Source: Zootoca vivipara (taxonomy: Eukaryota). Taken from it: a stretch of DNA of 64,000 bases. The stretch lies in NCBI RefSeq assembly GCF_963506605.1, contig NC_083283.1:6882001-6946000 (forward strand), in the 5' to 3' direction. Under the pieces are notes generated by a model. That model was not told where the DNA came from. It made no database searches and saw only the letters and a list, made by a program, of their open reading frames with translations. Positions within the stretch are counted from its first letter, which is position 1, and every line of letters begins with the position of its first letter. Position numbers and translations under genes: made by a program. This document shows positions 2,020 through 56,017 of this stretch, piece after piece.

Positions 2020-3815
2020 ATAGAATCATAGAGTTGGAAGAGACCACAAGGGCCATCCAGTCCAACCCCCTGCCAAGCAGGAAACACCATCAAAGCATTC
2101 TTGACATATGGCTGTCAAGCCTCTGCTTAAAGACCTCCAAAGAAGGAGACTCCACCACACTCCTTGGTAGCAAATTCCACTGTCGAACAGCTCTTACTGT
2201 CAGGAAGTTCTTCCTCATGTTTAGGTGGAATCTTCTTTCTTGTAGTTTGAATCCATTGCTCCATGTCCGCTTCTCTGGAGCAGCAGAAAACAACCTTTCT
2301 CCCTCCTCCATATGACATCTGTCACAGTGGCCGGAGTGGGCTACTTCAGAGTAATGACTCTACACAGCTCTGCATTTTATCTTTTTATTGGTGCTGCGTA
2401 TTTACAGTGCTAAAGGCAGTGCTATTTACAGAGACACATCTTATCCGCTTGAATCAGAACCTCCGAATGGCGTTTGGCGCGTTTTTCTCCAACATAACAA
2501 CTTGGGGAGACCCATCCTCTTCCCCCTACGTTTTCTGCGCAATTCCGGAGTTGGGGGGACAGGTCTGCCCCCCTTGCTTCCCCCTTCCTGTCCCACCTGG
2601 GATGCTGGCTCTGCTACCCTGTCTGAGCCTCGGACCCCACTTCCTGTTTCCCCACTTGAGACGGAACTCTCCCTGCTTTCCCCTGCGCTCGGGGATGGGC
2701 TGGAACTCAGGAGGGGAGGGACTTCGCGATATCCCCTGTCCCTCACATCCACCCCCCTCCCAGGCCCCCCTTCTCCCCTCCCGAGGGGCTCCAAGGGCGT
2801 CGGTGACGACTGAAAGCCTAAAAACTCTGTGCTGTCCGAGCCGGTTGGTGTGAACACCTCTTCCCAATCCCTCGAGCTCCCTCCTTCCGCCTGAGAAGAC
2901 TGAAATCCCAAAAAGTCCGTGGCGTCAGAGCTGGTGGGGGTAAAAATACGCTGCCAGTCTGCCTCTTCCTCTGACAGGGTGGACCTCGGAGACGCCCATA
3001 CCTCTTCCTCCGGGTCCTCAAACTCCGCTTCCCATCTCCACAGTGAACTGCTCTCTGCGACCTCCTCCCCTTCCCCCTCCCTCTCCCTTTCCATGTGCCA
3101 GGACTTGGGCCTGTGTGGGAAGAGGGCGTGGAATTCTTCCACCAAGAATTCCTCCTGTATCTGAGTGGCTGGGACCCATTCATTCTGGGAAGGCGGGGCA
3201 TCCTCCCATGCCATGAGGTACTCCAGGCCCCCCACCCCTCTCCGTGAATCAAGGATGGCCGTGGCTTCATTGAGTTGCTCCCTGCCTCCCCTCTCCCCCC
3301 CTCCCTCGGGGGTCTGTTCGCGATATCCCCTGTCCCTCACAACATCCTTTCAAATATTTGAACATGGCTATCATATCACCCCTTAACCTTCTCTTCTCCA
3401 GGCTAAACATACCCAGCTCCCTAAGCCGTTCCTCGTAAGGCATCGTTTCCAGGCCTTTGACCATTTTGGTTGCCCTCCTCTGGACACGTTCCAGCTTGTC
3501 AGTATCCTTCTTGAACTGTGGTGCCCAGAACTGGACACAGTACTCCAGGTGAGGTCTGACCAGAGCAGAATACAGTGGTACTATTACTTCCCTAGATCTA
3601 GATGCTATACTATTGATGCAGCCCAGAATTGCATTGGCTTTTTTAGCTGCTGCATCACACTGCTGACTCATATCAAGTCTGTGGTCTACCAAGACTCCTA
3701 GATCCTTTTCACATGTACTGCTCTCAAGCCTGGTGTCACCCATCCTGTATTTGTGCCTTTCATATATTTTTTTGCCCAAGTGTAGTACCTTACATTTCTC
3801 CTTGTTAAAATTCAT
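2020..3815 (-). mobile_element. 5'-truncated CR1 LINE (RT C-terminus and 3' tail), interrupted by an LTR-like element
   Basis: Translation [14 protein letters not shown]...[15 protein letters not shown]...[16 protein letters not shown] continues after the insert as ...FLTVRAVRQWNLLPRSVVESPSLEVFKQRLD. CR1-type ATTCTATG tail at ~2020-2030. Confidence 0.9.
2320..3341 (-). mobile_element. Solo-LTR-like Gypsy (chromovirus) element encoding a chromodomain
   Basis: TG...CA termini and 5-bp TSD ACATC (2315-2319 / 3342-3346). Minus-strand AATAAA near 2385. ORF 3340-2441 contains AILDSRRGVGGLEYLMAWEDAPPSQNEWVPATQIQEEFLVEEFH. Confidence 0.8.
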
Positions 3816-7459: not shown

Positions 7460-8437
7460 TCATAGCTGAGTTTCAACGGAGATATCAAGTTTCTGTTGGG
7501 AGTTTTCTTCCTCTTTGAAAAGATTCTGGAGTGTGGCTTTCATGCTCTTCCTTGGTCTGCCTCTCTTCTGTCTTCCAATAAGGAAGTAGGTCAAACGGTT
7601 AACACTGCCGTTCATGCAGACACATAAGTAGACATAAAATGTACGATGTGGAAATGGGGAGTCAAAAACAAACAGGGCAATGTAAATGCCATTCAATGGA
7701 AAAGAAAAAAAGAGGAAGAAGAACAGAGTCAACAAGATGACTATCAGAAGCTTCCTCCGCCTCTGCTGTTGTGGTTTAAAGCAGAACTTGATGAAGAGAA
7801 CCAGAGTGGAGATAGTCATGAGTGGGAGGCAAAGGAAGCCATTTAAAATATACTGGTAAATGCTTATGTTCTGATAATCCATGTCAACAGTCAGCCAAAG
7901 AGTGAAGTTAGCAGCAGGGGGGAGGAAAGAGAGTACCCATATAATGGCACACACGGTGGTGGACAAATTCACTGGTCGGTGGCATCGATGCCAAAGTGGG
8001 AACAGGATGGACACACACCTGTCAATGCTAATTGCTATCAGTAAAAATTGCCCAGCATTGTACATGACTAAGAAGATATCATCAAATAATGCATACAGAA
8101 GGCCTATCCTATTACTATATCCAATCAAATAAATGCCCAGAATAAAGTTAGCTGTGAGTGACCCAAAGTCAGCAATGGAGAGGTTCAGGATAAAAGTGGT
8201 GAATTGGTTCCTCTTAATGCAGAAGCCAAGCAGCCAGATGACAGTCCCATTCCCCCAAAGCCCCAAAATGCTGATTAACATGCAGCTGATCATCAATATA
8301 TTTCGTTCTAGCTCATCACTTGATGCTGAATCATCATCACTGTGGCTATTGTTGTAGAAAACAGTTTCATTGTCTGCTCCATAATAGTCTTCTCCAGCAC
8401 TCAGAGGAGACACAGATGTTAGGCTTAAATTGGTCAT
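7460..8437 (-). CDS. Mas-related G protein-coupled receptor (MRGPR-like), 325 aa
   Basis: Seven hydrophobic segments; GLWGNGTVIWLL, ILNLSIADF, SIDRCVS-LFPLWHRCHRP, FSFP; TM7 reads NRLTY instead of NPxxY; ends ETQL. Splice-acceptor-like sequence ~46 nt upstream of the ATG. Confidence 0.9.
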   Translation of the reverse strand: MTNLSLTSVSPLSAGEDYYGADNETVFYNNSHSDDDSASSDELERNILMISCMLISILGLWGNGTVIWLLGFCIKRNQFTTFILNLSIADFGSLTANFILGIYLIGYSNRIGLLYALFDDIFLVMYNAGQFLLIAISIDRCVSILFPLWHRCHRPVNLSTTVCAIIWVLSFLPPAANFTLWLTVDMDYQNISIYQYILNGFLCLPLMTISTLVLFIKFCFKPQQQRRRKLLIVILLTLFFFLFFSFPLNGIYIALFVFDSPFPHRTFYVYLCVCMNGSVNRLTYFLIGRQKRGRPRKSMKATLQNLFKEEENSQQKLDISVETQL

Positions 8438-9537: not shown

Positions 9538-9695
9538 GGGGTTGTGGCTCAGTGGTAGAGCATCTGGCCTGCAAGCAGAAGGTCGCTGGTTCAATCCCTG
9601 GTGTCTAAGGTAGGACTGGGGAAACACCACTGTCTGAAAGCCTGGAGAACAGCTGCCAGCCAGTGTAGACAATACTGGGTTAGATGAACCAATGT
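9538..9695 (+). mobile_element. Old tRNA-derived SINE
   Basis: A box TGGCTCAGTGG and B box GGTTCAATCCC followed by a non-tRNA body. Relatives near 52075-52190 and 33330-33460. Confidence 0.6.
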
Positions 9696-9710
9696 CACCT
9701 GTTAACTAGT

Positions 9711-9890
9711 CATAGGAGCCAACTCCGAGGGCCCAAGGGGTCTTCCGCCCCCCATAAAATTTGAGGGGGTCGCCCCCCTCCAACGTTGATGGGCATTGCC
9801 ATTCAAATGGTGTGTGTGCATCGTGTCCTGCGATTGAGCAGGACAGGGCTTACTCCCCCCCCCAATATTTTATTTAAGTTGGCACCCCAG
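9711..9890. mobile_element. Degenerate hAT MITE
   Basis: CATAGGAGCCAACT / AGTTGGCACCCCAG termini; 8-bp TSD TAACTAGT / TAACCAGT. Inverted paralog at ~32385-32543. Confidence 0.6.
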
Positions 9891-10024
9891 TAACCAGTTC
9901 ACCCCAAGAGCCTGAACCTGTGCCTGTCTGCAAGAATAAAATGACCGCATACTTCTGCCACTGAGCAATGACTTCCCTCCTGCCCTTGGCAATGAAGAAC
10001 TTTGAATTTGAGTTGTTCACTTAC

Positions 10025-10270
10025 CTGTGGCAAACTCTGGATCAGGTATTCTGAATCAGAGAGACCAAGAGACAAAAAAATAATAATTCTGTGCTGGAAT
10101 AGCTTGCAATCAGGAAATTTGCAGAAACCAGAGAAACCTTGAGGTCCTGAGGGAAATTCAGTGTCTCAAGCTTACTGCAAAATATACCGGAACTCACACA
10201 AAACTCTTCATCTGTACTTGAACAGTTTGCCAGTATCATGTGATGAGGAAAATGATTGCCAGTGGGTTAT
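10025..10270 (-). promoter_or_regulatory. Putative non-coding 5' exon of the MRGPR at 7460-8437
   Basis: Minus-strand donor CAG|GTAAGT at 10025. Homologous blocks ending in donors lie upstream of other paralogs (28929, 42759, 52783, 55766). Confidence 0.55.
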
Positions 10271-10382
10271 CAAGATTGTCACCAGCAAACTTAGGAGGAG
10301 ATTCTTCCTAAGAATAGGTGGAAGAAAAGTAGGTTTCCAAGTGGTGGAGGAGGGTAAAATCAACTCTGACTATTTCAGGAGA

Positions 10383-10577
10383 CAGGTAGGTAGCCGTGTT
10401 GGTCTGACGTAGTCGAAATTAAATAAAAATAAAAATCCTTCCAGCAGCACCTTAAAGACCAACTTAGTTTTTTTTTATTTTGGTATGAGCTTGAAGTGTG
10501 CATGCACATGAAAGCTCATACCAAAATAAAAAACTTAGTTGGTCTTTAAGGTGCTGCTGGAAGGAATTTTTTTATTT
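10383..10577. mobile_element. Short Penelope-like insertion (inverted terminal-repeat pair)
   Basis: Inverted arms CAGCAGCACCTTAAAGACCAAC...TATGAGCTT / AAGCTCATA...GTTGGTCTTTAAGGTGCTGCTG; 12-bp TSD TATTTCAGGAGA. Confidence 0.8.
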
Positions 10578-11369
10578 TATTTCAGGAGAGATGCAGTGGT
10601 TGAACAGAATCATAAAAAGGCTTCTAAATTTCAATTCTTAACTGGGTTAGGATATGGAAAAGAGCACAAAACACTTTCAAGGCTATAGCAAATGTAAGAT
10701 GTCCCATAAATAAAATTTAAAAAGAAAATAATAAAGAAACAAAGGCCAAACTTTGGAGATGCCTCATAGCTGGAAATATTTGTTGGATTTGAAACAAAGT
10801 TACTACTGTTGCTTCTACTAGTTTCAAAATACTTTTTTGGGGGGGAGGGGTTCAGGCACAATTCTGAATTGCAGCAAAAGAATATTGACATGACAAGGGA
10901 GTTTTCTCAGGAGGGTTTTTCCCGTCATTTTTGATAATTTCAGGGAATTGAGATTTAGGAACACGGGGTGAGGGGAAACAAGAACATCCACTTTGTTTCT
11001 AGTACTGCTTCACCTTCAAGAATACTCTGTCTCTCATATCTACATTTCCAAGCAAAATAGATTTGATGATAGACCATAACTGTCTGACATTTAACTCCCG
11101 CTATCATGTGCCGAGGCTATGTTCATGTATTGGGAAGTACATATATATCAGATATCTATCTGCAATATCCTTGTGTTCAGTTCCCCCAGAGTCATTCTGT
11201 GCCTTTGTGTAATAACAGGTCAAACTGGAAGGGTAATTGAGGAAAAGGAAGGCCAGCTTCATAGTTTTGTTTACTGCACTTTGGGATGGAGCGAAGAGAT
11301 CATGTAAGAGAAACCTATGGCAGAATAATTTTGCATTTTGAGGAGATAGGTTGATAATTGGTTTGTATA

Positions 11370-13125
11370 ACTCTTCCTCCTTGCTTATTGACTGCCAATG
11401 GCCCTTGGTTTGCTTTATCTTCTAGATTTACTGTTTGTGCTCCAGGTAGAAGTATCAGTAGGATCTGGGAAGATCCACTTGAGGGTCAGCTGAAGGCTGA
11501 GTGTCTGCCAGCAACAGTGCAGCTGCAGGATTAATTCACTTTGCTGGCCCCCATATATTTCCCTGTATGGGAGGTGGGAGGAATTTAGATATCAGGCAAG
11601 CCAGCACATAGGTATAGAAATCTCCCTGATGAGGGTATGACCTTTGAGCTTTGATGTATGCCTTGCTCCGGGGGTGCTGTTTACTGGTCAGCTGGAGTCC
11701 CTCCATTATCATTCCCTGGAGCACCCAGTAACTGAATGAGGAAGCATTTTATTTTGTTTATTCCATGTTGATGTTAGGATTCATTCCTTGTGTTGCAGTC
11801 ATGGGATTGCCTATACTCTGCTGATCCTGAAGTGTGCTGATGGTATCAGTCGCTGTGATGTTTGGGCTGGAGAAAGCTTTTGAATCTCCCGAATGAACGA
11901 CCAGGAGGGAGAGAACATGGCAGTCGGGCATGGGTGTCTCTGCCTGACTCCTACTCGTGTGTAGGACCTCCTGGCAGTTATTACATTCAAAGACAAGTTC
12001 ACTGCTTTTTATTCTGCGTTCAAGGCTGCTACATAACAATGGTTTTCTCCACTAGTGTTTTCCACTGAGGTTTTCTCCACTAGTGTTGTTATTGCCACAT
12101 AATCAAAAACAGGTCTTGCATTTGGCAAAGCAGATGGGAGGGCAGCGGTTTGACCCCATTACTACTCCACTTCTGTTGGAATAACCCAAGAAACTACTTT
12201 CCCCAAATAAATTTTTTAATTCGACTAGCTTTCCTTGTTCAGTGTATCTCCTCATACCAGGAACAATGGCAAAGTAATCATTCTCTTAGCACAGGGAATG
12301 TGCATTAGAAAAAAGTCTTGACTATATTATATGTATTTTCATTATTTTATTATATCATATTTTATTATTTTATGATAGGTATTTGATTATTTATTATCTG
12401 TATTTTTATTTCCTTTCATTTATCACCTTCCTTTGCTCCAACATGGAATCAAAGATGGAATACATATGTTTTCTAGGAGTTCTCCCATCTAGCCACTGAC
12501 CAAACCCAGACCCGCTACACGTCCAGCTAAGGGGTGGCCGCAGGTGCCTTCAGACCATAATCCTGGAAAATGTCATTTTTTTCAGTTATGTAGAGCTGAG
12601 TATAGTACTCTCCTTGTTCCTGGCAGCTGGCAGTGTCTTATACAGCAGTACTAGTGAAAAACAATGACTAAAATAACTACTATTATTCTATTTATAGATA
12701 AGTAGCTGTGTTGGTCTGCCGTAGTTGAAACAAACAAAGAAAAATTCCTTCCAGGAGCACCTCAGAGACTAACTAAGTTTGTCATTGGTATGAGCTTTTG
12801 TGTGCATGCACACTTCTTCAGATACTGTATCCCGAAAGCTCATACCAATGACAAATTTAGTTGGTCTCTAAGGTGCTACTGGAAGGATTTTTTTTTTTAC
12901 TCTTATTCTTTCTGCCTAGACCACTGGCTCTTTCTTCTTGTATTGACTGCCAATGGCTTTTGGTTTGCTTTATTGTCTAGGCTTACTTGTTTCTGCTCCA
13001 GGTAGAAGTATTAGGAGGATCAGGGAAGATCCGCTTGAGGGTCAGCTGAAGGCTGAGTGTCTGCCAGCAATAGTGCAGCTGCAGGATTGATTAAGTATGC
13101 TGGCCTCCATATATTTGCCTATCTT
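11370..13125. repeat. Direct repeat pair (~200 bp) at ~11370-11570 and ~12927-13125
   Basis: Shared ATTGACTGCCAATGGC...CTCCAGGTAGAAGTAT...GAGGGTCAGCTGAAGGCTGAGTGTCTGCCAGCAA...GCAGGATT. Confidence 0.75.
12695..12897. mobile_element. Short Penelope-like insertion (inverted pair)
   Basis: Same repeat family as 10383 and 30324; the inversion is centred on the hammerhead-like motif. Confidence 0.75.
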
Positions 13126-19374: not shown

Positions 19375-19743
19375 TTAAAAAGCAGAGACATCACCTTGCC
19401 GACAAAGGTCCATATAGTTAAAGCTATAGTTTTCCCTATCCATTCTGAAGGAAATCAGCCCTGAGTGCTCACTGGAAGGACAGATCCTGAAGCTGAGGCT
19501 CCAATACTTTGGCCACCTCATGAGAAGAGAAGACTCCCTGGAAAAGACCCTGATGTTGGGAAGGATGGAGGGCACTAGGAGAAGGGGACGACAGAGGACG
19601 AGATGGTTGGACAGTCTTCTGGAAGCTACGAATATGAGCTTGACCAAGCTGTGGGAGGCAGTGGAAGACAGGAGTGTCTGGCGTGCTCTGGTCCATGGGG
19701 TCACGAAGAGTCAGACATGACTAAACAACTAAACACAACAACA
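19375..19743 (+). mobile_element. BovB (RTE) LINE 3' fragment with internal deletion
   Basis: MRREDSLEKTLMLGRMEGTRRRGRQRTRWLD...WRALVHGVTKS; (CAA)-type tail. Confidence 0.9.
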
Positions 19744-20322
19744 GCTGGTTAACATGGTCATATGCACACAACAAACTCAAAGATATACATGCTAATGTAT
19801 TTATTTATTATTTCATAATATTCATACACTGCTTGATGGTAGAAAATCTCAAAGCAGTTTACAGAAATGTAAGAGGCATCATTAAAACAAAAAACCATAC
19901 AATTTTTAAAGGCATCCTGAAGAGTTGGGAAGATCTCCTTCCTTCATTTACTGTTCATGGTGATGTCATATAGCAGTAGCATCACTGGAAACTGGAGGAA
20001 CCTTGTATCCCCCTGATCAGTGTGGGCAGGTTTTCCACACCCCAGTTCCCCTAAGACGAAGATGTACTGCCCAGTAGCAGCAGTATCAATGGGATGTAAA
20101 GGATAGGAGGGTGGGCTTTTTATTTATTTTGGATTCTCCCCTGTACATTGCTCATGATATTTAGTCTGCCAAGTTTCTTCCCCTTGAGCAGTAAGGCAAA
20201 TGTCATTCCATTCCTCTATGACTCCTCTGTTACAACTCAGTTCACATTCTCTGCACATCTCCTACATGTCCTCTTTCCAAAACTCAGCTGCCTGAAGAAA
20301 TCACTTCTTCCACCACTCACAA

Positions 20323-21712: not shown

Positions 21713-22088
21713 TGTTATGTACTGAGCTGAATCCTAGAACAATAGGATTCAGAATCAGCGGGAGCTACCCAATCCAACTCCAGGTGGAAGTGAATCCGCA
21801 ACCTGATTGGCCTGCTGGAGCAGCCAATCAGGCGGCTGGCAGAAGTGAATCTGCTACCTGATTGGCCTGTAGGAGCAGCCAATCAGGCTGCAGGCAGAAG
21901 TCAATCCACAATATAATTGGCCCACAGGTGTAGCCCTGAAGTAGCCAATCACGCAAGGCCCATTGTGTAAATAATGTATATAAGCAGATGGTTTTGGGAA
22001 AAGAGCCACTCGTCTTCTCTTCTCCTCCTTGATGACTATGAGCTGAATAAAGAGCATGAAATTCACTCTCGACTCCGAGTATATTTCA
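21713..22088 (+). repeat. 5' LTR
   Basis: TGTTATGT...ATATTTCA; CCAAT boxes, TATATAA and AATAAA; identical by eye to 26298-26673. Confidence 0.95.
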
Positions 22089-22089
22089 C

Positions 22090-22107
22090 TGGCGACGAAG
22101 GTGGGAT
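22090..22107 (+). promoter_or_regulatory. Primer binding site, complementary to a tRNA-Ser(GCT)-like 3' end
   Basis: TGGCGACGAAGGTGGGAT directly after the LTR. The tRNA identity is recalled from vertebrate tRNA-Ser(GCT) ends, not searched. Confidence 0.75.
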
Positions 22108-22216
22108 CCTGCTGAGCTGACCGCCACCACGCACTGCACCGCAGCACCGCCACCTGCTGCACCGCTGCATCGCACCGTGCATCCAGGCTTCAGCTCCAGG
22201 ACCCAAGGAACCCAGA

Positions 22217-25200
22217 ATGGCAACCGACAGCAGCTTCTCGCCATTCAAACCAGCATCAGGAGACTGGGAAGGGTACGCCGCCCGTTTCAACTTCCTCCTG
22301 CAAGCGAAAGAAGTCACCAACGATGCCATGAAGAGGGCGACATTCTTCAGCGTCTGTGGAGAGGAGACGTTTGAAATCGCCCGGGCTCTCCTTGCACCTA
22401 GAGATGTCGCTACCGTCTCTTACAAAACAATAATGGAACGGCTGAAGGAGCACTTCTCACCACAGCCCTCGGTGGTAGCTTGCCGAAATGCCTTCTACGC
22501 AAAGCGGCAAGCCCCGGGGGAAACCATAACTGGGTTTGTGACCTCCCTCCGCCAAGCCGCCCGGTTATGCAACTTCTCAGAATTGGAGAACATGCTTCGT
22601 GACCGCCTCGTCGGTGGCCTGAGGGACGAGATGTTGCAACGACGCCTCTACGCCAAAAAAGACCTCACGTTCCAGATTGCTCTGGAGGAAGCCCTGGCAA
22701 CCGAAGCCGCCGAGAGGTCAACGCAAGAGGCACGACCGGCCCCGCCATCCCAACCGAGGGTCTACCACGAAGACCTCACCGACGAATCCGAATCTGACAG
22801 GGAGGAAGTACACAGAGTACAGCGGCGCACTCAAGCAGCACACACACCACAGCAGCCTCGACGAGAAGGAGGGAACTGTGCAAGCTGCGGGGAGAACCAC
22901 GAGAGGAGGACCTGTCGTTTCCGCAACGCAGAGTGCAGGCAGTGCAGAAAATTAGGACACATCGCCCGGGTGTGTCGGGCTCGACTCACACGTCGACAAG
23001 CATCAGATGACCGACCCAGGAGCCCCAGGCCACACGGCACCATGCACCAAGGCAACTCGACGGAGATCACAGACTATCAGGTATTCCAGTTGCCCCATCC
23101 CAGCACAGAGAAAATTTATATAGAGGTACAGATAGAGGGAGCCCCATGCCGCATGGAGCTGGACACGGGTTCAACTCTATCCATAATCTCAGCCCGAACA
23201 TTAAGGGAACTGTGCCCTAATGGGGGTCCCAAACTAAGGCCGGCCCCATTCACCCTCCGGGACTTCCAGAAACGTAAGGTCCCTACTATGGGGGTGGGAA
23301 CCTTCAGGGTGCAATATCGAGGGCGAAAGCAACAATTGGACTTGCTGGTAGTTAAGGGCCCCTACGTTAGCTTACTGGGACTGGCATGGTTTGGACCTCT
23401 GGGGCTAGCCGTTACCGGGGTGAACCGCACTAGCTTACAAGTGGACGTGGACGCCATATGCAAAGAGTTTCCAGGGGTTTTCGATGGGGCATTGGGACGA
23501 TATACAGGACCCCCCATTGCCCTACAGCTAGACCCCGCTGTACGACCCATCAGGCACAAGGCCCGCCGGGTCCCGTTCGCCCTGAAACCCCGCATAGACG
23601 AGGAATTGGACCGGCTCGTGGAGCAAGGAGTGCTGGAGCCGGTGCCCAACGCCCCCTGGGAGACTCCAATTGTCACACCCGTCAAGCCTAACGGTTCGGT
23701 CCGCATCTGTGCAGACTACAAATGCACCATAAACAAGGCTCTCACGGCCCATGCATACCCAGTGCCAGTGGTCAGCCATGTCCTCGCCACCCTGGCTGGG
23801 TCAAAAATCTTTGGCAAACTGGACTTGGCCCAAGCGTATCAACAGTTGCCTGTGGACGAAGCCACAGCAGAGGCCCAGACGATTGTGACGCACAGAGGGG
23901 CATTCAGAGTAAAGCGGCTGCAATTTGGCGTTAGCGTGGCACCAGGCATATTCCAGAATCTAATGGACTCTCTCCTTAAAGGGATTCCTGGCGTCACCCC
24001 CTTCTTCGATGATGTACTGATCGCCGGGCCCACACCAGAGGAATTTGAGGACCGCCTCCGCTCCGTCCTGCACCGTTTCCAGACGGCGGGCCTCAAGGTG
24101 AAGCGGGAAAAGTGTTTACTGGGAGTGCCGCAGGTGGACTTTCTGGGATTTAAGGTGGACGCAGAAGGGGTCCATCCAACCGGTGACAAGGTACGGGCCA
24201 TTTGTGAGGCCCCAGCGCCCAAGAGCAAGCCCGAACTTCAGTCATTCTTGGGACTATTGAACTTTTACCATGCCTTCCTTCCCCATAAGGCAGCGGTAGC
24301 AGAGCCCCTACACAGACTCCTAGATAAAAGGGCCCCTTGGGTGTGGGGCCAGCGACAAAGGGCCGCATTCCAGGCAGTCAAGGACTTGCTCGTCTCGAAC
24401 TCGGTCTTAGCACACTTCGACGAGAGGCTGCCAGTGGTGCTGGCATGCGACGCCTCTCCCTATGGCATCGGCGCTGTCCTGGGACACCAACTCCCGGATG
24501 GAAGAGAGGTGCCGGTGGCATACTTCTCCCAGACGCTTGCTGCAGCCGAACGAAACTACTCACAGATTGACAAGGAGGGTCTGGCAATCGTGAAGGGCGT
24601 AAAAAAATTCCATGATTTCTTGTACGGGCGGCCCTTTACCATAGTGACTGACCACAAGCCGTTGCTTGGCCTGTTTGCCCCTGAGAAGCAGACCCCCCAA
24701 GTGTTGTCTCCACGTGTCCTCAGGTGGTCAATTTTCCTTGCCGGCTACCAGTATGCACTAATCCACCGCCCTGGGAAGGCGATGGGCCACGCAGACGCCC
24801 TCAGCAGGCTACCACTACCAGAAACAGGCCCCGACCCAGCGCCTGCGCAAGAGGTTATGACCCTGGAGCTGCTTCCCGACCGACCCATTCAGGCACAAGA
24901 AGTTGCGCACCATTCCACAAAAGATAGGGTCATCTCCCGGGTCCTGGACTGGGTGTGGCGAGGATGGCCCAGCAGCAGCCCCGGGCCAGAATTCGCTGGC
25001 TACACAAACCGCAAACATGAACTGTCGGCCCACAAGGGGTGCCTGTTATGGGGAAGCAGGGTTGTTGTTCCCCAGCCCCTCCGCAAAAGGGTCCTCACAG
25101 CCCTACACGAGACACACCCAGGGGTAGTGAGGATGAAGGCCCTTGCCAGGAGTTATGTGTGGTGGCCGGGGATTGACAGAGAGATAGAGGCCTGGGTCCA

Positions 25201-26287
25201 ACACTGCCAGACCTGCCAAGAATCCCGCCCGGATCCCCCTAGGGCCCCAGTCCAGCCCTGGGAGTCCGCCCGACATCCATGGTCACGCTTGCACGTGGAC
25301 TTCGCTGGCCCCTTCCAGGGAAAAACATTCTTCATAGTGGTGGATTCCTACACCAAATGGCTGGAGGTCGCACTGGTACCATGCACTTCTACGGCGGCAG
25401 CCATCCGGGTACTACGTAAGCTGTTTGCGACCCACGGGCTCCCTGACACCCTCGTCTCGGACAATGGAACCGCATTCACGTCAGAGGAGTTCCAGACCTT
25501 CACAGCGCAGAACGCCATCCGCCACATCCGCTCAGCACCATTCCACCCTGCCACCAATGGCCAAGCGGAGCGCATGGTGCGGACCACCAAGGACAGCCTC
25601 CGCCGCATGACACAAGGGGACTGGGAATACCGCCTTGCCGCATTTCTTCTAGCACAGCACAGCACCCCAAGCACAACGACGGGCCGGAGCCCAGCTGAAT
25701 TACTAATGGGCCGGCGCCTTGCAACTAGACTGGACCGACTTCACCCCGACAGAGCTCAGGATGAGGTAGTGGTGGGGAAAGGCAGGAACCCCCGGACATT
25801 TGTGGCCCAGGACCCAGTGTATGCAAAGAATTTTGGGGCAGGCCCAGCATGGGTACCCGCCACAGTCACCAAGGTGACCGGTCCCGTGTCGTACGAGGTA
25901 CTAACGGAAGGGGGGCAATGTTGGCGCCGCCACTGCGACCAGCTACGGCGACGATTCCCAGGAGGAACCCGGGAGGAGAGCGGGACAGAGGGGTCCCAAG
26001 GGGACAGCAGGGCAGTGAGGCCTGTAGAGCGAGAGGGGTGGGCAGGGGAAGCAGAAGCAGTAGGCACAGAGGGGCGCCCCGAGGCTGGAAGGACACCGGA
26101 ACCAGAGCTACAACCTGGTGGTTCAGTGGCGCCAGACCAGACAGCCCCGGCACAGCCAGCAGCCTCGGAACACGAGCCAGAACCAGAACCCCTGACCAAG
26201 GAACACCCCAGGCCACAACGCACACGGAGGCGGCCAGCAGACCTTGGGGACTACGAATGCAACTTCCCGGGCAAGACTGGAACTTAG
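22217..26287 (+). CDS. Gag-Pol polyprotein, 1356 aa
   Basis: Zinc knuckles (CASCGENH..C, CRQCRKLGHIARVC), protease LDTGS, RT (ICADYK, FFDD), RNase H (DASPYGIGAVL), integrase HHCC plus DFAGP / SDNG / NGQAER; Gypsy domain order. Confidence 0.96.
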   Translation: MATDSSFSPFKPASGDWEGYAARFNFLLQAKEVTNDAMKRATFFSVCGEETFEIARALLAPRDVATVSYKTIMERLKEHFSPQPSVVACRNAFYAKRQAPGETITGFVTSLRQAARLCNFSELENMLRDRLVGGLRDEMLQRRLYAKKDLTFQIALEEALATEAAERSTQEARPAPPSQPRVYHEDLTDESESDREEVHRVQRRTQAAHTPQQPRREGGNCASCGENHERRTCRFRNAECRQCRKLGHIARVCRARLTRRQASDDRPRSPRPHGTMHQGNSTEITDYQVFQLPHPSTEKIYIEVQIEGAPCRMELDTGSTLSIISARTLRELCPNGGPKLRPAPFTLRDFQKRKVPTMGVGTFRVQYRGRKQQLDLLVVKGPYVSLLGLAWFGPLGLAVTGVNRTSLQVDVDAICKEFPGVFDGALGRYTGPPIALQLDPAVRPIRHKARRVPFALKPRIDEELDRLVEQGVLEPVPNAPWETPIVTPVKPNGSVRICADYKCTINKALTAHAYPVPVVSHVLATLAGSKIFGKLDLAQAYQQLPVDEATAEAQTIVTHRGAFRVKRLQFGVSVAPGIFQNLMDSLLKGIPGVTPFFDDVLIAGPTPEEFEDRLRSVLHRFQTAGLKVKREKCLLGVPQVDFLGFKVDAEGVHPTGDKVRAICEAPAPKSKPELQSFLGLLNFYHAFLPHKAAVAEPLHRLLDKRAPWVWGQRQRAAFQAVKDLLVSNSVLAHFDERLPVVLACDASPYGIGAVLGHQLPDGREVPVAYFSQTLAAAERNYSQIDKEGLAIVKGVKKFHDFLYGRPFTIVTDHKPLLGLFAPEKQTPQVLSPRVLRWSIFLAGYQYALIHRPGKAMGHADALSRLPLPETGPDPAPAQEVMTLELLPDRPIQAQEVAHHSTKDRVISRVLDWVWRGWPSSSPGPEFAGYTNRKHELSAHKGCLLWGSRVVVPQPLRKRVLTALHETHPGVVRMKALARSYVWWPGIDREIEAWVQHCQTCQESRPDPPRAPVQPWESARHPWSRLHVDFAGPFQGKTFFIVVDSYTKWLEVALVPCTSTAAAIRVLRKLFATHGLPDTLVSDNGTAFTSEEFQTFTAQNAIRHIRSAPFHPATNGQAERMVRTTKDSLRRMTQGDWEYRLAAFLLAQHSTPSTTTGRSPAELLMGRRLATRLDRLHPDRAQDEVVVGKGRNPRTFVAQDPVYAKNFGAGPAWVPATVTKVTGPVSYEVLTEGGQCWRRHCDQLRRRFPGGTREESGTEGSQGDSRAVRPVEREGWAGEAEAVGTEGRPEAGRTPEPELQPGGSVAPDQTAPAQPAASEHEPEPEPLTKEHPRPQRTRRRPADLGDYECNFPGKTGT

Positions 26288-26297
26288 AGGGGAGGGG
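26286..26297 (+). promoter_or_regulatory. Polypurine tract
   Basis: AGAGGGGAGGGG immediately before the 3' LTR. Confidence 0.9.
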
Positions 26298-26673
26298 TGT
26301 TATGTACTGAGCTGAATCCTAGAACAATAGGATTCAGAATCAGCGGGAGCTACCCAATCCAACTCCAGGTGGAAGTGAATCCGCAACCTGATTGGCCTGC
26401 TGGAGCAGCCAATCAGGCGGCTGGCAGAAGTGAATCTGCTACCTGATTGGCCTGTAGGAGCAGCCAATCAGGCTGCAGGCAGAAGTCAATCCACAATATA
26501 ATTGGCCCACAGGTGTAGCCCTGAAGTAGCCAATCACGCAAGGCCCATTGTGTAAATAATGTATATAAGCAGATGGTTTTGGGAAAAGAGCCACTCGTCT
26601 TCTCTTCTCCTCCTTGATGACTATGAGCTGAATAAAGAGCATGAAATTCACTCTCGACTCCGAGTATATTTCA
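26298..26673 (+). repeat. 3' LTR
   Basis: Identical by eye to the 5' LTR. Confidence 0.95.
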
Positions 26674-29443: not shown

Positions 29444-29707
29444 ATAAAAAAAATTCCTTCAGTAGCACCTTAAAGACCAACTAAGTTTTTATTTTGGTAT
29501 GAGCTTTCGTGTGCATGCACACTTCTTCAGATACAGTGAAATGGAAGTTTCCAGGCACTTATGTAGAGAAGGGGTGGGGAGGGGTGGGGATGGGGAGGGG
29601 GGATCACTCAGAAGGGTGGTGGAAATGGGTGATTGACTGACTGATAGCTGTTGATGACCGCAAACGACTGCAAATGGTTTTGCATGAAAAAGCAAGGGTT
29701 GAGATGG
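29444..29707 (-). mobile_element. Penelope 3' terminal-repeat fragment
   Basis: Essentially identical to 30360-30622; lies at the edge of the inverted duplication. Confidence 0.85.
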
Positions 29708-30411
29708 ACTCAAGCGGAGTTACTCTAGGGTAGCCACGACGACCCTCTGAGGTATCGCAATACATGAACATAGCCTTGGCACATGATGTCTGCAGTTAAA
29801 TGTCAGACAGTTATGGTCTATCATCAAATCTATTTTGCTTGGACATGTAGATATGAGAGACAGAGGTGAAGAAGTACTAGAAACAAAGTGGGTGTTGTTG
29901 TTTTCGTGAAAAATGACTGCGAGTTCAGGTTCTCCCCTCACCCCATGTTCCTGAATATCATTTCTCTGAAATTATCGGAAAAAATCCTCCTGAGAAAACT
30001 CCCTTGTTATGTCAATATTCTTCTGCTGCAATTCAGAATTGTGCCTGAACAAAAACAAAAAAGTATTCTGAAACTAGTAGAAGCAACAGTAGTAACTTTG
30101 TTTCAAATCCAACAAACACTTTCAGCTAGGAAACAAAGTTTGTTCTTTGTTTCTTTGTTTCATTTTATTTTTAAATGGTCTTGATGGGACATCTTACATT
30201 TGCTATAACCTAGAATGTGTTTTGTGCTCTTTTCCATATCCATTATTATTTTAACCCAGTTAAGAATTGAAATTTAGAAGCCTTTTTATGATTCTGTTCA
30301 ACCACTGCATCTCTCCTGAAATACAGGTAGGTAGCCGTGTTGGTCTGGATCGAAGTAAAATAAAAAAATTCCTTCAGTAGCACCTTAAAGACCAACTAAG
30401 TTTTTATTTTG

Positions 30412-30449
30412 GTATGAGCTTTCGTGTGCATGCACACTTCTTCAGATAC
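30412..30449 (-). ncRNA. Minimal type I hammerhead ribozyme motif (Penelope-associated)
   Basis: Reverse complement of the motif at 31802-31839. Confidence 0.7.
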
Positions 30450-31801
30450 AGTGAAATGGAAGTTTCCAGGCACTTATGTAGAGAAGGGGTGGGGAGGGGT
30501 GGGGATGGGGAGGGGGGATCACTCAGAAGGGTGGTGGAAATGGGTGATTGACTGACTGATAGCTGTTGATGACCGCAAACGACTGCAAATGGTTTTGCAT
30601 GAAAAAGCAAGGGTTGAGATGGCTGAAGATCGCTTATCATGTATAATGAGATAAGAACCCGATATCTCTGTTCAAACCAGGTCCCTCCATGGTTTTGAGC
30701 TTGGTGATAAGTTGCAATTCAGCAACTTCTCTTTCCAGTCTATTTCTGAAATTCTTTTGTAGTAAGACAGCTACTTTGAGATCTTGTATAGAATGTCCTG
30801 GGAGATTGAAGTGTTCTCCTACTGGTTTTTCTGTCTTCTGGTTCCTGATGTCAGATTTATGTCCATTTATCCTTTGGCGTAGGGTTTGGCCTGTTTGTCC
30901 AATATAGAGAGCTGAAGGGCACTGTTGGCATTTGATGGCATACACAATGTTAGAGGATGAGCAATTAAATAGTCCTGAGATGGTATGTTGGATGTTGTTG
31001 GGGCCAGTAATGGTGTTGTCTGGGTGTATGTGGCAGCAAAGTTGGCATCTGGGTTTATTGCAGGCTCTGGTACCAGTGTCCATGTTAAGTCTGGGAGGAA
31101 GACCTTTCATTGCCTACAGACAGCCACCCAATCTTAAACAACTCCTCACCCACAATAATACAACCACCAGACTTAACATGGACACTGGTACCAGAGCCTG
31201 CAATAAACCCAGATGCCAACTTTGCTGCCACATACACCCAGACAACACCATTACTGGCCCCAACAACATCCAACATACCATCTCAGGACTATTTAATTGC
31301 TCATCCTCTAACATTGTGTATGCCATCAAATGCCAACAGTGCCCTTCAGCTCTCTATATTGGACAAACAGGCCAAACCCTACGCCAAAGGATAAATGGAC
31401 ATAAATCTGACATCAGGAACCAGAAGACAGAAAAACCAGTAGGAGAACACTTCAATCTCCCAGGACATTCTATACAAGATCTCAAAGTAGCTGTCTTACT
31501 ACAAAAGAATTTCAGAAATAGACTGGAAAGAGAAGTTGCTGAATTGCAACTTATCACCAAGCTCAAAACCATGGAGGGACCTGGTTTGAACAGAGATATC
31601 GGGTTCTTATCTCATTATACATGATAAGCGATCTTCAGCCATCTCAACCCTTGCTTTTTCATGCAAAACCATTTGCAGTCGTTTGCGGTCATCAACAGCT
31701 ATCAGTCAGTCAATCACCCATTTCCACCACCCTTCTGAGTGATCCCCCATCCCCATCCCCACCCCTTCTCTACATAAGTGCCTGGAAACTTCCATTTCAC
31801 T

Positions 31802-31839
31802 GTATCTGAAGAAGTGTGCATGCACACGAAAGCTCATAC
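31802..31839 (+). ncRNA. Minimal type I hammerhead ribozyme motif (Penelope-associated)
   Basis: GUAU-CUGAAGA-A-GUGUG(CAUG)CACAC-GAAA-GCUC-AUAC: stem I, catalytic boxes, stem II, and a palindromic AGCU in place of stem III. Confidence 0.72.
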
Positions 31840-32792
31840 CAAAATAAAAACTTAGTTGGTCTTTAAGGTGCTACTGAAGGAATTTTTTTATTTTTCTCCT
31901 GAAATAGTCAGTTGATTTTACCCTCCTTCACCACTTGGAAACCTTCTTTTCTTCCACCTATTCTAATAGGGGAATAATCTCCTCCTAAATTTGGTGGTGA
32001 CAATATTGATAATCCACTGGCAATCATTTTCCTCATTGCATGATACTGGCAAGCTGTTTAAGTACAGATGAAGAGTTTTGTGTGAGTTCCTGCACATTTT
32101 GCAGTAAGCTTGAGACACCAAAATTCCCTTGGGACTTCGGAGTTTCTCTGGTTTCTGCAAATTATCTGATTGCAATCTATTCCAGCATAGAGTTTCTTTG
32201 TCTCTTGGTTTCTCTGATTCATAATACCTGATCCAGAGTTTGCCACAGGTAAGTGAACAACTCAAATTCAAAGTTCTTCATTGCCAAGGGCAGGAGGGAA
32301 GTCATTGCTCAGTGGCATAAGTATGTGGTCATTTTATTCTTGCAGACAGGCACAGGTTCAGGCTCTTGGGGTGAACTGGTTACCGGGGTGCCATGTTGAA
32401 TAAAATATTGGGGGGCCCAGGTAAGCCCTGCCCTGTGTATTCAATCACATGATGCTGTGCACACACGCTGTTTGAATAGCAGTGCCCATCAACTTGGGGG
32501 GGGGGGGCTTGAAATTTTATTAAGGACGTAGTTGGCTCCTATGACTAGTTAACAGGTGTCATTGGTTCATCTAGCCCAGTATTGTCTTTCAGTACTGGTC
32601 TGCCTTAATGGAGGCAGCTCCCATGACAGTGGGGGATTGTTGGTGAAGGAAAAATGAGGATGATTGAGGGAAAGTATCCTTGCAAATTCCCCCCAGGGAC
32701 AGGGGGGGGGCGACTGGCTTCACTCGCAGTTCATCTCGGTACCTGGCTCTCCCTCTGGCATGGATGCGGGAGGCAGGAAGGTACTGAGTTCA

Positions 32793-37018: not shown

Positions 37019-37312
37019 TGAACTCAGTTGTTGCTGTTGTGCTTCTTCTTGTGTAGATATGTCTGCTGGGGGTGGAGAGGGTGGGATTAGTCTTTGATAA
37101 TGAATAAAGATGAAGCTAAAGCTTTTCAGCCTACTCTTTCTTGTCTTTGTGAGTTAATTCTTGAGTTAATTCCTAATATGAGAGTTAATTTTTAAGGTGA
37201 AATGGCTCATCTGTTTCATCTCCATTTCAGGCTGCCTCTTCAGTAAAAAAACTAATGTCAGGGACTGGCTGGATGAGGAGGAGTGTCTGTTTAAGGCTTC
37301 AACTTTTATATT

Positions 37313-37663
37313 CAGTTAGGTAGCCATGTTGGTCTGACACAGTCAAAATATATAAAAAATATATAAAAAATGTCCAGTAGCACCTTTGCTGTTGTTGTTT
37401 AGTCATTTAATCGTGTCCAACTCTTTGTGACCCCATGGACCAGAGCACGCCAGGCATTCCTGTCTTCCACTGCCTCCTGCAGTTTGGTCAGACTGATGTT
37501 GGTAGCTCCGAGCCACTAATAAACCATCTCGTCCTAAGTAGGTGTCCAGTAGCACCTTAGAGACCAACTAGGTTTGTTGTTCAGAAGTGTGCATGCACAC
37601 AAAAGCTTATACCAAGATCAAACTTAGTTGGTCTCTAAGGTGCTACTGGACATTTTTTTATAT
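37313..37663. mobile_element. Short Penelope inverted insertion containing a BovB 3' fragment (37387-37542, minus strand)
   Basis: Outer TSD TTCAACTTTTATATT / TTCAACTTTCATATT; inner 16-bp TSD TGTCCAGTAGCACCTT. Confidence 0.8.
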
Positions 37664-38234
37664 TTCAACTTTCATATTGTCATGGAAGTGACTAAGAAAT
37701 CTTAAATAAATAACGTGATATTGATTGTGTCAGAGTGTGTTTGTCGAAATTAAAGTGGAGATTACACTCTAAAGTCTCATATAGCAGAAAGAAACTACTG
37801 AGAAAAATTAGTTTGCAAATGGTAGGGAAGGGAGAACCAGCTAATGGCTCTGTGACTTGATCAAGTGAAATTCATTTATTGATTAGTCATACCATGCTTT
37901 TACATTTCCAGGCTCAATCTGGTTAACGGAATCAGAACGGATGTAGAGGGGGGGGGGGAGGTACAAAAACACGTAATATTTTAGCCAATGTAAAAACTAC
38001 CATAAGGGACATGACTAGTTGCAGCTGGTAATTTGTGAATATTTCTTATGCACTCATTATACTCAAACTTGGGATTGAAATACTCAAACAAGGTATTTCT
38101 TCACACACCATCTGTGCCTTATGGGATTTTTACCATGGTCATCCTTCTGTAAAGTTTATACCTGTAGTCAACCATATCCTACTGGTTTTTCCCATCCCAA
38201 AAGGCTTCTTTTATGCTCACTATGTGAATGCCAA

Positions 38235-39965: not shown

Positions 39966-40219
39966 TGCAATAAACCGTTGCTTTTATGCTTCTTTTGGTG
40001 TAGGAACAGCTGCTGGAAGAAATGAGAAAATGGTGGAGCTGGTCTTTGTTAATCAAAATACACAAAGAAACAGGAAGGTAAAGATTTTCAGCTTCAACTT
40101 CTGCGCCTTTATCTATTTCAAAGTGCACTGTCGGTGAAATGATTCTTGCTATTTCATTTCCAGGAAAAGATGCTGGTGGAACTAGCACAGCTATGGAAAT
40201 ATATAAAGGTCCAACCCAA

Positions 40220-40500
40220 TAAAAAAATTCCTTCAGTAGCACCTTAAAGACCAACCAAATTTTTATTTTGGTAAAATAAAAAAATTCCTTCAGTAGCACC
40301 TTAAAGACCAACTAAGTTTTTATTTTGGTATGAGCTTTCGTGTGCATGCACACTTCTTCAGATACACTGAAACAGAAGAAGTGTGCATGCACACGAAAGC
40401 TCATACCAAAATAAAAATTTAGTTGGTCTTTAAGGTGCTACTGAAGGAATTTTTTTTATTTTGTTTCGTCTCAGACCAACACGGCTACCCGCCTCTAACT
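40220..40500. mobile_element. Short Penelope inverted insertion with a hammerhead motif (40328-40365, minus strand)
   Basis: TSD AGGTCCAACCCAA (40207-40219 / 40501-40513); inverted arms. Confidence 0.82.
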
Positions 40501-41030
40501 AGGTCCAACCCAAGACATTTAAGCACCTAAGGAAGACCCAGAAATGTCCCCCCTCCCTACCAGGAAAGAAGAGGTTGTACACCAGGAACACATGGGAGGA
40601 GGGAGGAGAGAGAAAGACTGACAGTGGGATCTGCTGCCCTGGGTGGACCTTGCCACTTGAGGTGGTTGTCTCATCTTGTTTCATGGGCTGGCCAACTCTG
40701 AATATATGAGAGATTTCAGAGAGTCTCTGTGAAACACACCATCCACTTGAACTTCATAGCATAAGTCTTCATTTCCCATGCCTATAACTCAGGCTAAGTA
40801 TAGGTAATTGAAATAACTGGGTAATCTTTTCTTCTTAGCCTCACATCCTTTGTTCAGTTTTAGATCATAAGCTCCTTGGGTCACTATGGATGTAATAAAG
40901 AAGCATACATGAAATGCCCTACCTGAACAGAATGGCCTTGATCTCCTTGAAAAATTATGTGTATGCCATAGGCCACGATTTCACGGTTGGCACAAGAGTG
41001 TCTAGAAGTGGCTAATCTGAAACAAGAAGT

Positions 41031-42325: not shown

Positions 42326-42758
42326 CCGTCCCTATCGTCCTACGCTACTGATTCCTTTCATTTGTTGAGCTAGTTTAGTAATATCCACTGAGCTAGGGAA
42401 AGCATCCAGAAAAGACTGGTGATAGATCCTCACATTTCAGACAAGGCAATTCCCAACCCTACCTGGCAGAGACTGTATCTCGAATCTTCTGCATGCAAAC
42501 CACTCTACTTCAGATTTTGGATACAAAATCCACACTTCCATTTGTGTGGCCATTGCTTATTCCTATGAAAACCTGCTATTTACTGTTGATTTGGGACAAA
42601 CATCAGTAGGGTGTTGGAAGGGTCATTCATAGTGTTGGACGTGAAGCTACTAAGGCCACCGGGCACTGAGATCTCCAGAACTCATTCTTTCCTAGTCCAG
42701 TGCCACCTGGGATCCCTATAACTCCTGCTACCCTTGCAGATGAAGTAAATTCACATAC

Positions 42759-43010
42759 CTGTGATAACCTGTGGCTCAGATACCATGAGCAGGAGGAAGC
42801 GGGAGTAACAGCGTTCTGTGCTGGGGAAAGTAGGCAATCAAAGGATTTGTAGGAATCAATGCAATCCCCAAGTCGCAAGGAAAACTTGTAAGTCTGACCA
42901 AGCTGACTTCAAGATGTCCTGTAAATTTTCCTCTCCGCTTCGTCTGCTCTTAATCAGTTTGTCAACATCTTGTGACAAGAAGAAACTGTTTCTTTACTGG
43001 TGATCAAGAT
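42759..43010 (-). promoter_or_regulatory. Putative 5' exon of the MRGPR at 39000-39965
   Basis: Donor CAG|GTATG at 42759; near-identical copy at 55766. Confidence 0.5.
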
Positions 43011-43344
43011 AGCCATCAGCAAAATTAGGAGGCGGTTGTTGCCGCCTTAAGTCTCACTGTTGTAGAAAGTACACTTGAGAAAAGTTGGTTAACAAGTCAC
43101 TGGGAAGCAGGAAACAGCTAACAACTCTGTGACTTGATAAAGTGATATTCATTTATTGATTGCTAATACCATAGTACAGTATGCTTCTTTCTATCCATGC
43201 TCAACCCGGTTAACATAATAATGTACATACAAAAAAGTACAAAAACACAGGGAATATTGCAGCCAATGGATACAGTAACAAAAGAGCCATGAGAAGTTTC
43301 TGCTGCAAAGTGGCAATTTCCTGTAGATTTCCCCCCCACACACA

Positions 43345-44956
43345 CACACACATGTAACCCCCGCTAACCACTCAAAACTCTTCCATTGTTTACAGCCTCC
43401 ACTTTCCTCATATCAGATTCCCCCAAGGATGTAGCATCCTCATATATGCCATTGCTTGAAGGTATTTAACTCAAACCACTGCTTTATTTAAAATTGCCAT
43501 TCCCCCCCCTCTGTTCTCTCCATCCCTGCTTTTACTCAAATGTGTTGTTTTAAGTCGCCATTTCCCCCTCTTATTTCATTGGTATCTCTTCTTGTTTCCA
43601 TCTTTGGGCTAATAATATTCTTGCTGCAGTTGTTGCATATAAAAACATTTTTTTATCTTCCTTAAGTATTTCTCTAATTGCAATACCTAATAAGAAGGCT
43701 TCTGGGGTTGTTTTTTTTATATAAATGTATATTTCAACATTTTTTAAAGTTCATTATATATCATATTCCCAGAAAGCCTTCACCTCCTTACACTCCCACC
43801 ACATATGATTAAAGGTGCCATCTTTTTCTTTACATTTCCAACATTGGTTATTTGTTCTATACATTTTTGTTAGTTTCACTCAGGGGTGGAGCAAGTGGGG
43901 GGCAGTAGGGGCGGGGAGCCCCGGGTGTGGGCCCTGGTGACACCCTGGAGGGGTGTCAGTCGGGGCCGCTGACCCCGCCCCTCTGCTCCATCGGGAGCAT
44001 GCTTCGGCCGAGGGAGGAAGCCGCTTGCTCCCTCGGCCGACGAACGCTGTCCATGTGCTGTCCCTGTGCTCTCCGCGCCGCAGGGAGAGCGCAGGGGGCG
44101 ACAAACCACAGTGGGTCAGTGACGAGCACCCCGCCTGCACATCGTGACGTCACGGCACTGCAGCGCGTAGCGGTGCCCCACCCCCTGGGGTGCTGCCTGC
44201 TTTGACGCCCCGGGCGTCAAAGCGCCTAGGAACGCCCCTGGTTTCACTGGCATTATATACCATCTATACATCATTTTCATTACATTTTCTTTGAGCAAAC
44301 TGCATGCAGTAAAATTTATTCCATCTTTTCACAATATTTCCCAATCTTCTAATTGTTATGCCCAGTATCTTTTGCCCAATGTATCATTACAGATTTAGCT
44401 TCTTCATATTTCGTATGCCATTCCAAAAGCAACTTATACATTATTGACAGCATTTTTACTTTATTGCTTAAAAAATCGAATTCAAACTAGATCTTATATA
44501 TTCACATTCATTTTTCTTTTTGTCTTCTGTAAACATTCATTTGTTTGACAATAATGCAGCCAATCATTTACCAGGTTTTTTATTTCCTCATAAGGTTTTT
44601 GTTTCCACTGGTTATCCATCTCCATCACCAAATCTCCATAGGTGGCCCATCCCCCCCCATATTTAACTTTTTGATACTTGATGCCTCTAACAGCAACAGC
44701 CAGCATGATATTTTACATTCTATTAAGTCTTATATCTATTCAACACCTCATATATTGATTTTCGAATTATGTGGTTCAGAAAAACTTCATGGACTTTTAC
44801 CTTCTCACACCAGAAAGATGTGTGCCACCCAAATCTATTATCAAATCCTTCCAGATCTAATAGATCTGTACTTTTTACCAATATCCAATCCCTTAATCAA
44901 CAAAGGCAAGAAGCTTGGTAATACAATTTCAAATCTGGTAGAGAGAAACCTCATAG
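43345..44956 (-). mobile_element. 5'-truncated, decayed L1 LINE (ORF2 C-terminus)
   Basis: GFSLPDLKLYYQA...KENVMKMMYRWYI.PVK...CWKC...GTFNHMWWEC zinc-knuckle region, with stops. Confidence 0.82.
43881..44240. mobile_element. hAT MITE nested in the L1
   Basis: CAGGGGTGG...ACGCCCCTG termini and a perfect 8-bp TSD GTTTCACT. Confidence 0.85.
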
Positions 44957-55670: not shown

Positions 55671-56017
55671 TAACTCTGTTCATGTCAGTGTGCAAAATGC
55701 TTGCTAATTATCCCACTGAGGAATGGCTCTCCTGCTACCTTTCCAGGTGAAGTATGTTCACATACCTGTGATAATCTGTGGCTCAGATATCATGAGCGGG
55801 AGGAAGCAGGAGGAACAGAATTCTGTGCTGGGGAAAGTAGGCAATCAAAGGATTTGTAGGAATCAGTGCAATCCCCAAGTCACAAGGAAAACTTGTAAGA
55901 CTAACCAAGCTGAATTCAAGATGTCCTGTAAATTATCCTCTTCTCTTTGTCTGCGCTTAATCAGTTTGCCAACAGCTTGTGACAAGAAGAAACTGTTTCT
56001 TTACTGGTGATCAAGAT

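Follow-up and report, generated by a model that had tools for sequence, protein, structure and literature searches.

Two oppositely oriented Penelope-like insertions bracketed by the same 12-bp duplication in paralogous segments of the Zootoca vivipara genome

Insertions of Penelope-like elements (PLEs) normally consist of a copy with an inverted, truncated partner, a tail of 30-40 nt on one side only, and a short TSD (PMC8557442). The same features are found in elements of the Pen2a_Av type, the TSDs of the rotifer examples being 8-10 bp long (PMC3846280). The Neptune and Nematis clades are characterised by a linker between RT and EN with the motif CX2-5CxxC (PMC8557442), a hammerhead motif in the pLTR is described in PMC4209133, and Neptune and Poseidon had the widest distribution of all PLE groups among 35 sampled animal species (bioRxiv preprint 10.64898/2026.07.22.740005). 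Compared to these canonical EN+ insertions with a Neptune/Nematis linker (PMC3846280, PMC8557442), each of the two insertions described here, A and B, is ordinary by its anatomy when taken alone. It is the pair that is not described: a literature search, which reached few subscription papers, gave no report of two such PLE insertions that face opposite ways at homologous sites and have both TSD ends in common.

The closest biochemical system is the PLE protein of the anole, PAc (Anolis Poseidon), which was seen in vitro to cut both strands and to extend them (Frangieh et al. 2024, PMC11167929). Its RT has two internal start sites close to each other, the tail being the stretch between them, and the choice of start does not differ between the strands; a dimer is predicted for the protein, PLE enzymes have been reported to make nicks in the pLTR/tail region of their own element, and the later integration steps were left unvalidated by the in vitro work (PMC11167929). 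Cutting of both strands, two RT starts bounding the tail and a predicted dimer make up the symmetry that the A/B pair would need. PAc nevertheless belongs to the Poseidon clade, which is probably not that of A and B, and it prefers ATT, whereas neither putative nick at A and B is plainly at an ATT. The main text of that paper gives no in vivo case of one site filled both ways (PMC11167929).

The nearest genomic parallel comes from SINEs. In mammals, 0.01-0.29% of SINE insertions are precise parallel insertions, and the two elements of one whale case face opposite ways (PMC10531181). As for A and B, independent elements occupy the same homologous position in these cases and are told apart by subfamily (PMC10531181; PMC554112). 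SINE cases are L1-driven, concern orthologs of different species and allow a TSD shift of at most 1 nt, whereas A and B are paralogs within one genome, exact at both TSD ends, and involve a GIY-YIG enzyme. The features of a precise parallel insertion that are present in our pair are the same position and TSD at homologous sites, with copies separable by subfamily and orientation. A second parallel is the full conversion of the Alu Ye5AH181, where a younger subfamily is found at the site of an older one (PMC554112), as B would be if it had replaced an earlier insert. Orientation and tail side are however reversed between A and B, while an Alu conversion should preserve orientation.

Insertions A and B lie in a 64,000-nucleotide stretch of Zootoca vivipara DNA, hereafter the window, within two segments that are inverted copies of each other (Table 1). 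The flanks of the two inserts are collinear inverted paralogs, and agree at 621 of 684 aligned columns on the left side and at 474 of 515 on the right side; identity between the segments is 91-92%, and close to the site 36 of 596 columns differ, which makes about 6% substitution.

Table 1. Positions, in the window, of the duplicated segments, insertions A and B, comparator copies and neighbouring features
Feature	Position	Strand
MAS/MRGPR-like single-exon GPCR ORF served by segment A	7460..8437	-
Segment A, upstream/first-intron DNA of the first MAS-related receptor gene, paralogous to segment B	9667..11135	+
Consensus donor AG/GTAAGT (10025/10024), ~346 bp from the TSD, for a putative first exon without coding sequence	10017..10037	-
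A, left TSD copy, 12 bp	10371..10382	+
A, tailed arm, element 3' end, with 38-nt tail at 10383-10420	10383..10492	-
A, untailed inverted arm, starting at the palindromic stem of the hammerhead-like motif	10493..10577	+
A, right TSD copy	10578..10589	+
Copy E, older-type, 11-bp TSD with 1 mismatch; comparator	12679..12909	-
Copy C, untailed 261-bp fragment identical to the B tailed arm, bordering the inverted segment	29447..29707	-
Segment B, inverted duplicate of A, no receptor ORF ahead of its exon copy	29755..32587	-
B, TSD copy beside the tail (right copy in flank orientation)	30312..30323	-
B, tailed arm, with 33-nt tail at 30324-30356	30324..31094	-
B, untailed inverted arm, coding up to a stop at 31624	31091..31894	+
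B, TSD copy beside the untailed arm (left copy in flank orientation)	31895..31906	-
Copy F, older-type, 15-bp TSD with 1 mismatch; comparator	37298..37678	-
Copy D, B-type, at an unrelated target, 11-bp TSD; subfamily comparator	40207..40511	+

Judged by their sequence, A and B are fold-back insertions of a lizard PLE with a GIY-YIG endonuclease and a Neptune-type linker. The Penelope identity proposed in the earlier note is supported by the GIY-YIG domain, the linker motif, the one-sided tail, the inverted partner and the TSD. The untailed arm of B encodes the last part of the RT-EN linker, together with a CX4CX2C motif and, at the C-terminus, a GIY-YIG domain (PF01541, 25.3 bits for a cut-off of 22.6), and a GIY-YIG coding remnant is present in its tailed arm, within 30637-31113. 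In translation the linker motif reads CNKPRCQLC, which fits CX2-5CxxC and does not separate Neptune from Nematis. No RT core was found in A or B, both being 5'-truncated; in a 585-aa relative, 95% identical, the same C-terminus is preceded by PF00078 upstream. Among named relatives, gene-model fragments of Zootoca vivipara are the nearest (87-93% identity), followed by turtles (53-68% among the best matches). An inverted, 5'-truncated partner and a one-ended tail of 30-40 nt are features of both A and B. The endonuclease fragment of the element was also found in eight gene models of Zootoca vivipara (87-93% identity), seven of which contain PF00619 as well, which we take to be the CARD domain; this reflects either exonisation or an annotation artefact.

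A core of the form CTGAAGA...GAAA with a palindromic AGCT can be made out on inspection (in B, near 30420-30450), and the fold includes helices I and II. Rfam reported no hammerhead at gathering score, its only match in the window being tRNA-like (9538-9599). We regard the core as a putative, minimal hammerhead-like motif just inside the 3' end of the element. The arms of A meet at the palindrome of this motif. Those of B copy the same part of the RNA and meet via a 4-nt overlap: CTGG ends the tailed arm and, according to the ALGGRP reading of the relative, would also begin the untailed one. All four short inserts of the window (10383-10577, 12690-12898, 37313-37663 and 40218-40500) turn round at most about 40 nt from the hammerhead-like core, which suggests that the RT stalls or switches there.

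The exact 12-mer TATTTCAGGAGA was found four times over both strands of the 64 kb, at the four TSD positions of Table 1, for a chance expectation of about 0.008 (2x64000/4^12). Five more sites resemble it with at most 2 mismatches, and none has an element end within 15 bases on either side. Between the TATTTCAGGAGA copies, the insert measures 195 bp in A and 1571 bp in B. A 24-nt motif from the end of the tail matched exactly at 10383-10406 and 30324-30347, on the minus strand both times; in the control for this motif, 4 matches were reached in 0 of 100 shuffles. Read in flank orientation, A is arranged as TSD, tail, arm, inverted arm, TSD, and B as TSD, arm, inverted arm, tail, TSD, so that the tail comes after the left TSD in A and before the right TSD in B. 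According to the junction table, the TCTCCTGAAATA reading of the TSD joins the tail of A and the untailed end of B, and the TATTTCAGGAGA reading joins the tail of B and the untailed end of A. The tail-TSD and untailed-TSD joins are exactly exchanged between A and B. Coordinates and junction table therefore agree with the earlier claim of one 12-mer bracketing two inserts of opposite orientation, tails at opposite ends; the sequence variants quoted in support are present, and the repeats are true TSDs, 12 bp and exact at both loci. The tails, 38 nt in A and 33 nt in B, end on the same base, where the tail of copy F ends too. The inner boundary of the untailed end is the same in A, B and copy D, and C, E and F lie near it.

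Inverted repeats and near-identical paralogs are liable to be misjoined, and the two halves of B, about 730 bp, repeat each other almost perfectly in inverse orientation, with a 261-bp identical copy 915 bp away, so that an assembly artefact has to be considered. However, at every junction TSD, flank and element end meet in a short join that is unique, paralog-specific variants are present in the flanks on both sides, and the arms match within loci and not across them. The window contains no N, and a fold-back artefact would not be expected to yield TSDs or a one-sided tail. We hold a misassembly to be hardly credible.

Six insertions of the family in the window could be sorted by small variants. 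The one-G form CTGA is present in 5/5 arms of B, C and D, and the two-G form CTGGA in 6/6 arms of A, E and F. A further variant, GCTG, is found in the two arms of A, at a position where B, C, D and F have ACTG. The tail spacer of A is of the long form, as in E and F, about 4-5 nt longer than that of B and D, and the untailed arm of B is identical to that of copy D (65/65). Since these subfamily markers differ, A and B derive from different donor variants. Moreover, both arms of each locus share the markers of that locus, which argues against a half-swap between A and B, a scenario that we discarded on this basis, and against a common ancestor with two tails. That the tail was displaced through homologous recombination between any of the three identical arms (the two of B, and copy C) was rejected too: by reasoning, such exchanges leave each tail with its outer flank.

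The two-tailed ancestor, which the earlier note had itself raised, or an exchange between A and B by crossing over within the hairpin, with subsequent loss of one tail per locus and conversion of the arms, would make sense of tails that end on the same base. It could also draw on a 77-bp run, identical between the flanks of A and B, that covers the TSD (permutation P about 0.02) and hints at local conversion or constraint. A 95-bp identical run was found in the left flank as well, over the splice donor, and both runs may be read as weak hints of constraint or conversion. The tails, however, are different variants, of 38 and 33 nt, and the markers of B are common to copy D, at an unrelated site. 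Agreement of the arm markers within each locus is the reverse of what a half-swap predicts, and the untailed ends lie at the normal inner boundary, so that each loss would have to mimic the usual anatomy. As to the shared base, the tail of copy F ends on it too. Such an ancestry appears very unlikely to us.

The age of the insertions was estimated from the divergence of their arms. In B, 719 of 719 columns are identical, with 0 mismatches and one 10-bp indel in a G-rich tract; for arms as old as the duplication, given 6% substitution in the flanks, the binomial P is about 4e-20. Because the arms are identical while the flanks differ, B is younger than the duplication, barring conversion of the arms. 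The arms of A differ at 2/64 sites, which is compatible with an age equal to that of the duplication (P 0.25). We nevertheless infer that A is also younger than the duplication.

This latitude in the age of A leaves room for a replacement in place. An A-type insert would have been present before the duplication, and at B a young enzyme would have re-nicked the inner ends of the two old TSD copies, two new cDNAs being primed there and the old hairpin lost, so that the old TSDs would now enclose a new insert of opposite orientation. The identical TSDs would then be obtained without two hits on empty DNA; self-targeting of the pLTR/tail region is reported for PLEs (PMC11167929), and an older Alu fully replaced by a younger one is reported as well (PMC554112). 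On the other hand, no A-type trace or second tail is present at B, and both cuts would be needed exactly at the old junctions. A homology-driven conversion of the Alu kind would moreover be expected to preserve the orientation and the old tail, and the untailed arm of A, with 1 substitution/64 and 2 gap columns relative to the young B/D type, fits a recent origin. We consider a replacement at B improbable, and attach the same low credence to the view that a PLE enzyme re-cuts an occupied target at the old TSD ends and swaps the resident for a new element in either orientation. If this were true, the two-nick target would be reusable, and the orientation and subfamily of a PLE locus could change while its TSD remained constant.

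Summed over all readings that require a second retrotransposition, it is very probable that A and B represent two events at one staggered site. Two separate retrotranspositions using a single staggered cut had been proposed in the earlier note, and subfamily markers, arm identity and junction anatomy all speak for them. This evidence reaches further than the argument used there, that flipping between the inverted arms cannot move an outer tail; a replacement in place by B had not been considered.

Our preferred account is that two donors filled empty paralogous copies of the site through the same two nicks, with the roles of the primers swapped and the cut set at least loosely by the target; we hold it with moderate confidence. 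In target-primed insertion, the length of the TSD equals the spacing of the nicks, and two 3' overhangs are left. The receptor upstream segment would first have been duplicated and inverted, and Neptune-type PLE donors would then have hit the two empty copies separately. A 12-bp TSD would correspond to GIY-YIG nicks 12 nt apart, probably at ...GAAATA^G on the bottom strand and ...GGAGA^G on the top strand. Each 3' end would prime RT, an outer start giving the tailed arm and an inner start, 33-38 nt inside, the untailed arm, and the two cDNAs would be joined head to head, in B via the 4-nt overlap, in A at the palindrome of the hammerhead-like motif. The outer start would have been taken by the top-strand end in A and by the bottom-strand end in B. 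The same two bonds would have been nicked both times, and therefore the pair of nicks would be set at least loosely by the target, the orientation being a coin toss. A target-set cut is likely, and there may be some preference for this site; by analogy with the anole protein, the chemistry of the nicks and the symmetry of a dimer may apply here. Microhomology between primer and template at the tail junctions (1 nt in A, 2 nt in B, relative to the continuation in copy D) was tried as an explanation and abandoned, as it leaves the side of the tail unexplained.

How PLEs cut their target and complete integration is an open question. One target filled twice with exchanged primer roles is what a symmetric dimer predicts, and the pattern would be hard to obtain by a mechanism of the L1 kind, with a first nick and then a second. 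The single pair is a lead and not a demonstration. The site is a ready substrate for a cleavage assay, and same-site pairs in opposite orientation provide a genome-wide test. The pair is also a warning that two loci may have a PLE site and its TSD in common without common ancestry.

The suggestion of a cleavage hotspot at this position gained nothing from a search for signals in the window, where a single pair is available. The four distinct targets (A/B, D, E and F, with TSDs of 12, 11, 11 and 15 bp), a small sample, have no consensus in common. The dyad symmetry of the rebuilt sites reached a score attained by 46% (A) and 26% (B) of 6000 random centres, their fold energy was ordinary compared to 1500 random positions, and the likeness of the target to the element was at the median of 500 random stretches. 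A pyrimidine/purine symmetry of the 12-mer was dropped for this reason, dyad, hairpin and element-likeness all being ordinary relative to random positions.

Absence of motif, dyad and fold signals is also what would be expected if the 12-mer were nothing special and two independent insertions of an abundant element had met by coincidence at the same homologous position. Insertions of the family are frequent in this stretch, 6 in 64 kb, or about 1e-4 per bp. Under uniform insertion, and assuming a 30% match of TSD length, the chance of exact reuse is about 2.5e-4 per doubly hit 1.2-kb pair of paralogs, small for one pair and not negligible over many genomes; with an assumed few hundred doubly hit pairs, this makes of the order of 0.1 case per genome. 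The genome-wide figure is however built on assumptions, and both TSD ends match at A and B although TSD length spans 11 to 15 bp in the window. Coincidence is therefore rather unlikely in our view, yet it carries real weight.

The earlier note had also placed the site just upstream of a putative 5' exon and seen promoter DNA as the reason for cleavage. The first part stands in so far as a consensus donor is present at segment A together with a putative acceptor 46 nt before the receptor ATG, which point to a putative 5' exon. Donor copies are found near 32248 (+) and 28929 (-), and the donor is conserved in 3 of the 6 stretches checked. The promoter role gained no support: the exon copy of segment B points away from all 7 receptor ORFs of the window, and is thus probably an orphan.

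Four more distant paralogous stretches were aligned with the site. Two of them, near 43.1 kb and 57.4 kb, cross it without an insert, the sequence there being different, and the other two are too diverged at the insertion point. Among 24 sequencing runs compared, 19 contain part of segment A. Of its 147 words, a fraction of 0.48-0.86 was found in seven indexed runs from 3 studies and 0.06 in an eighth; runs with six other organism labels contained 0.06-0.11, and these word counts are silent on junctions or empty alleles. Pattern scans for further copies of the element in metagenome contigs (twice), viral contigs and prokaryote genome contigs gave 0 matches, and a fifth scan, by sequence, yielded none either.

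The receptors around the site form a cluster of 7 single-exon MAS/MRGPR-like GPCR ORFs of the rhodopsin type, all on the minus strand between 7460 and 62759 of the window, with PF00001 in 7/7. They are about 65-74% identical in DNA, one pair reaching 88-92%. For the first ORF, the best structure matches were MAS and MRGPR (MAS, E 2e-45). Upstream regions of the receptors have undergone further tandem and dispersed duplications, 84-92% identical, at 53276-55670 and between 42457-43758 and 54119-58003. A very young LTR retrotransposon at 21713-26673, with identical 376-bp LTRs, a 5-bp TSD and an open frame of 1388 codons (RT, RNase H, integrase), splits the third receptor ORF. A minus-strand frame with a chromodomain match, at 2441-3349, is probably the remnant of a chromodomain-bearing LTR element, and a tRNA-derived SINE-like repeat occupies 9538-9690.

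Some of the comparator copies have peculiarities of their own. Copy C shares the G-tract variant of B, has no tail and no TSD, and abuts a TG microsatellite. It meets the end of the inverted segment via about 47 bp without any other match in the window (29447-29754), and may be the trace of a recent rearrangement at this border of segment B. Copy D contains two untailed starts in tandem, one of about 56 bp and then a longer one. The short start has a variant in common with the tailed arm and the longer arm is purely B-type, as though one event had drawn on two template RNAs. Copy F is split by an insertion of about 150 bp of another repeat, also present at 19595-19745, with a 15-bp duplication (37373-37558).
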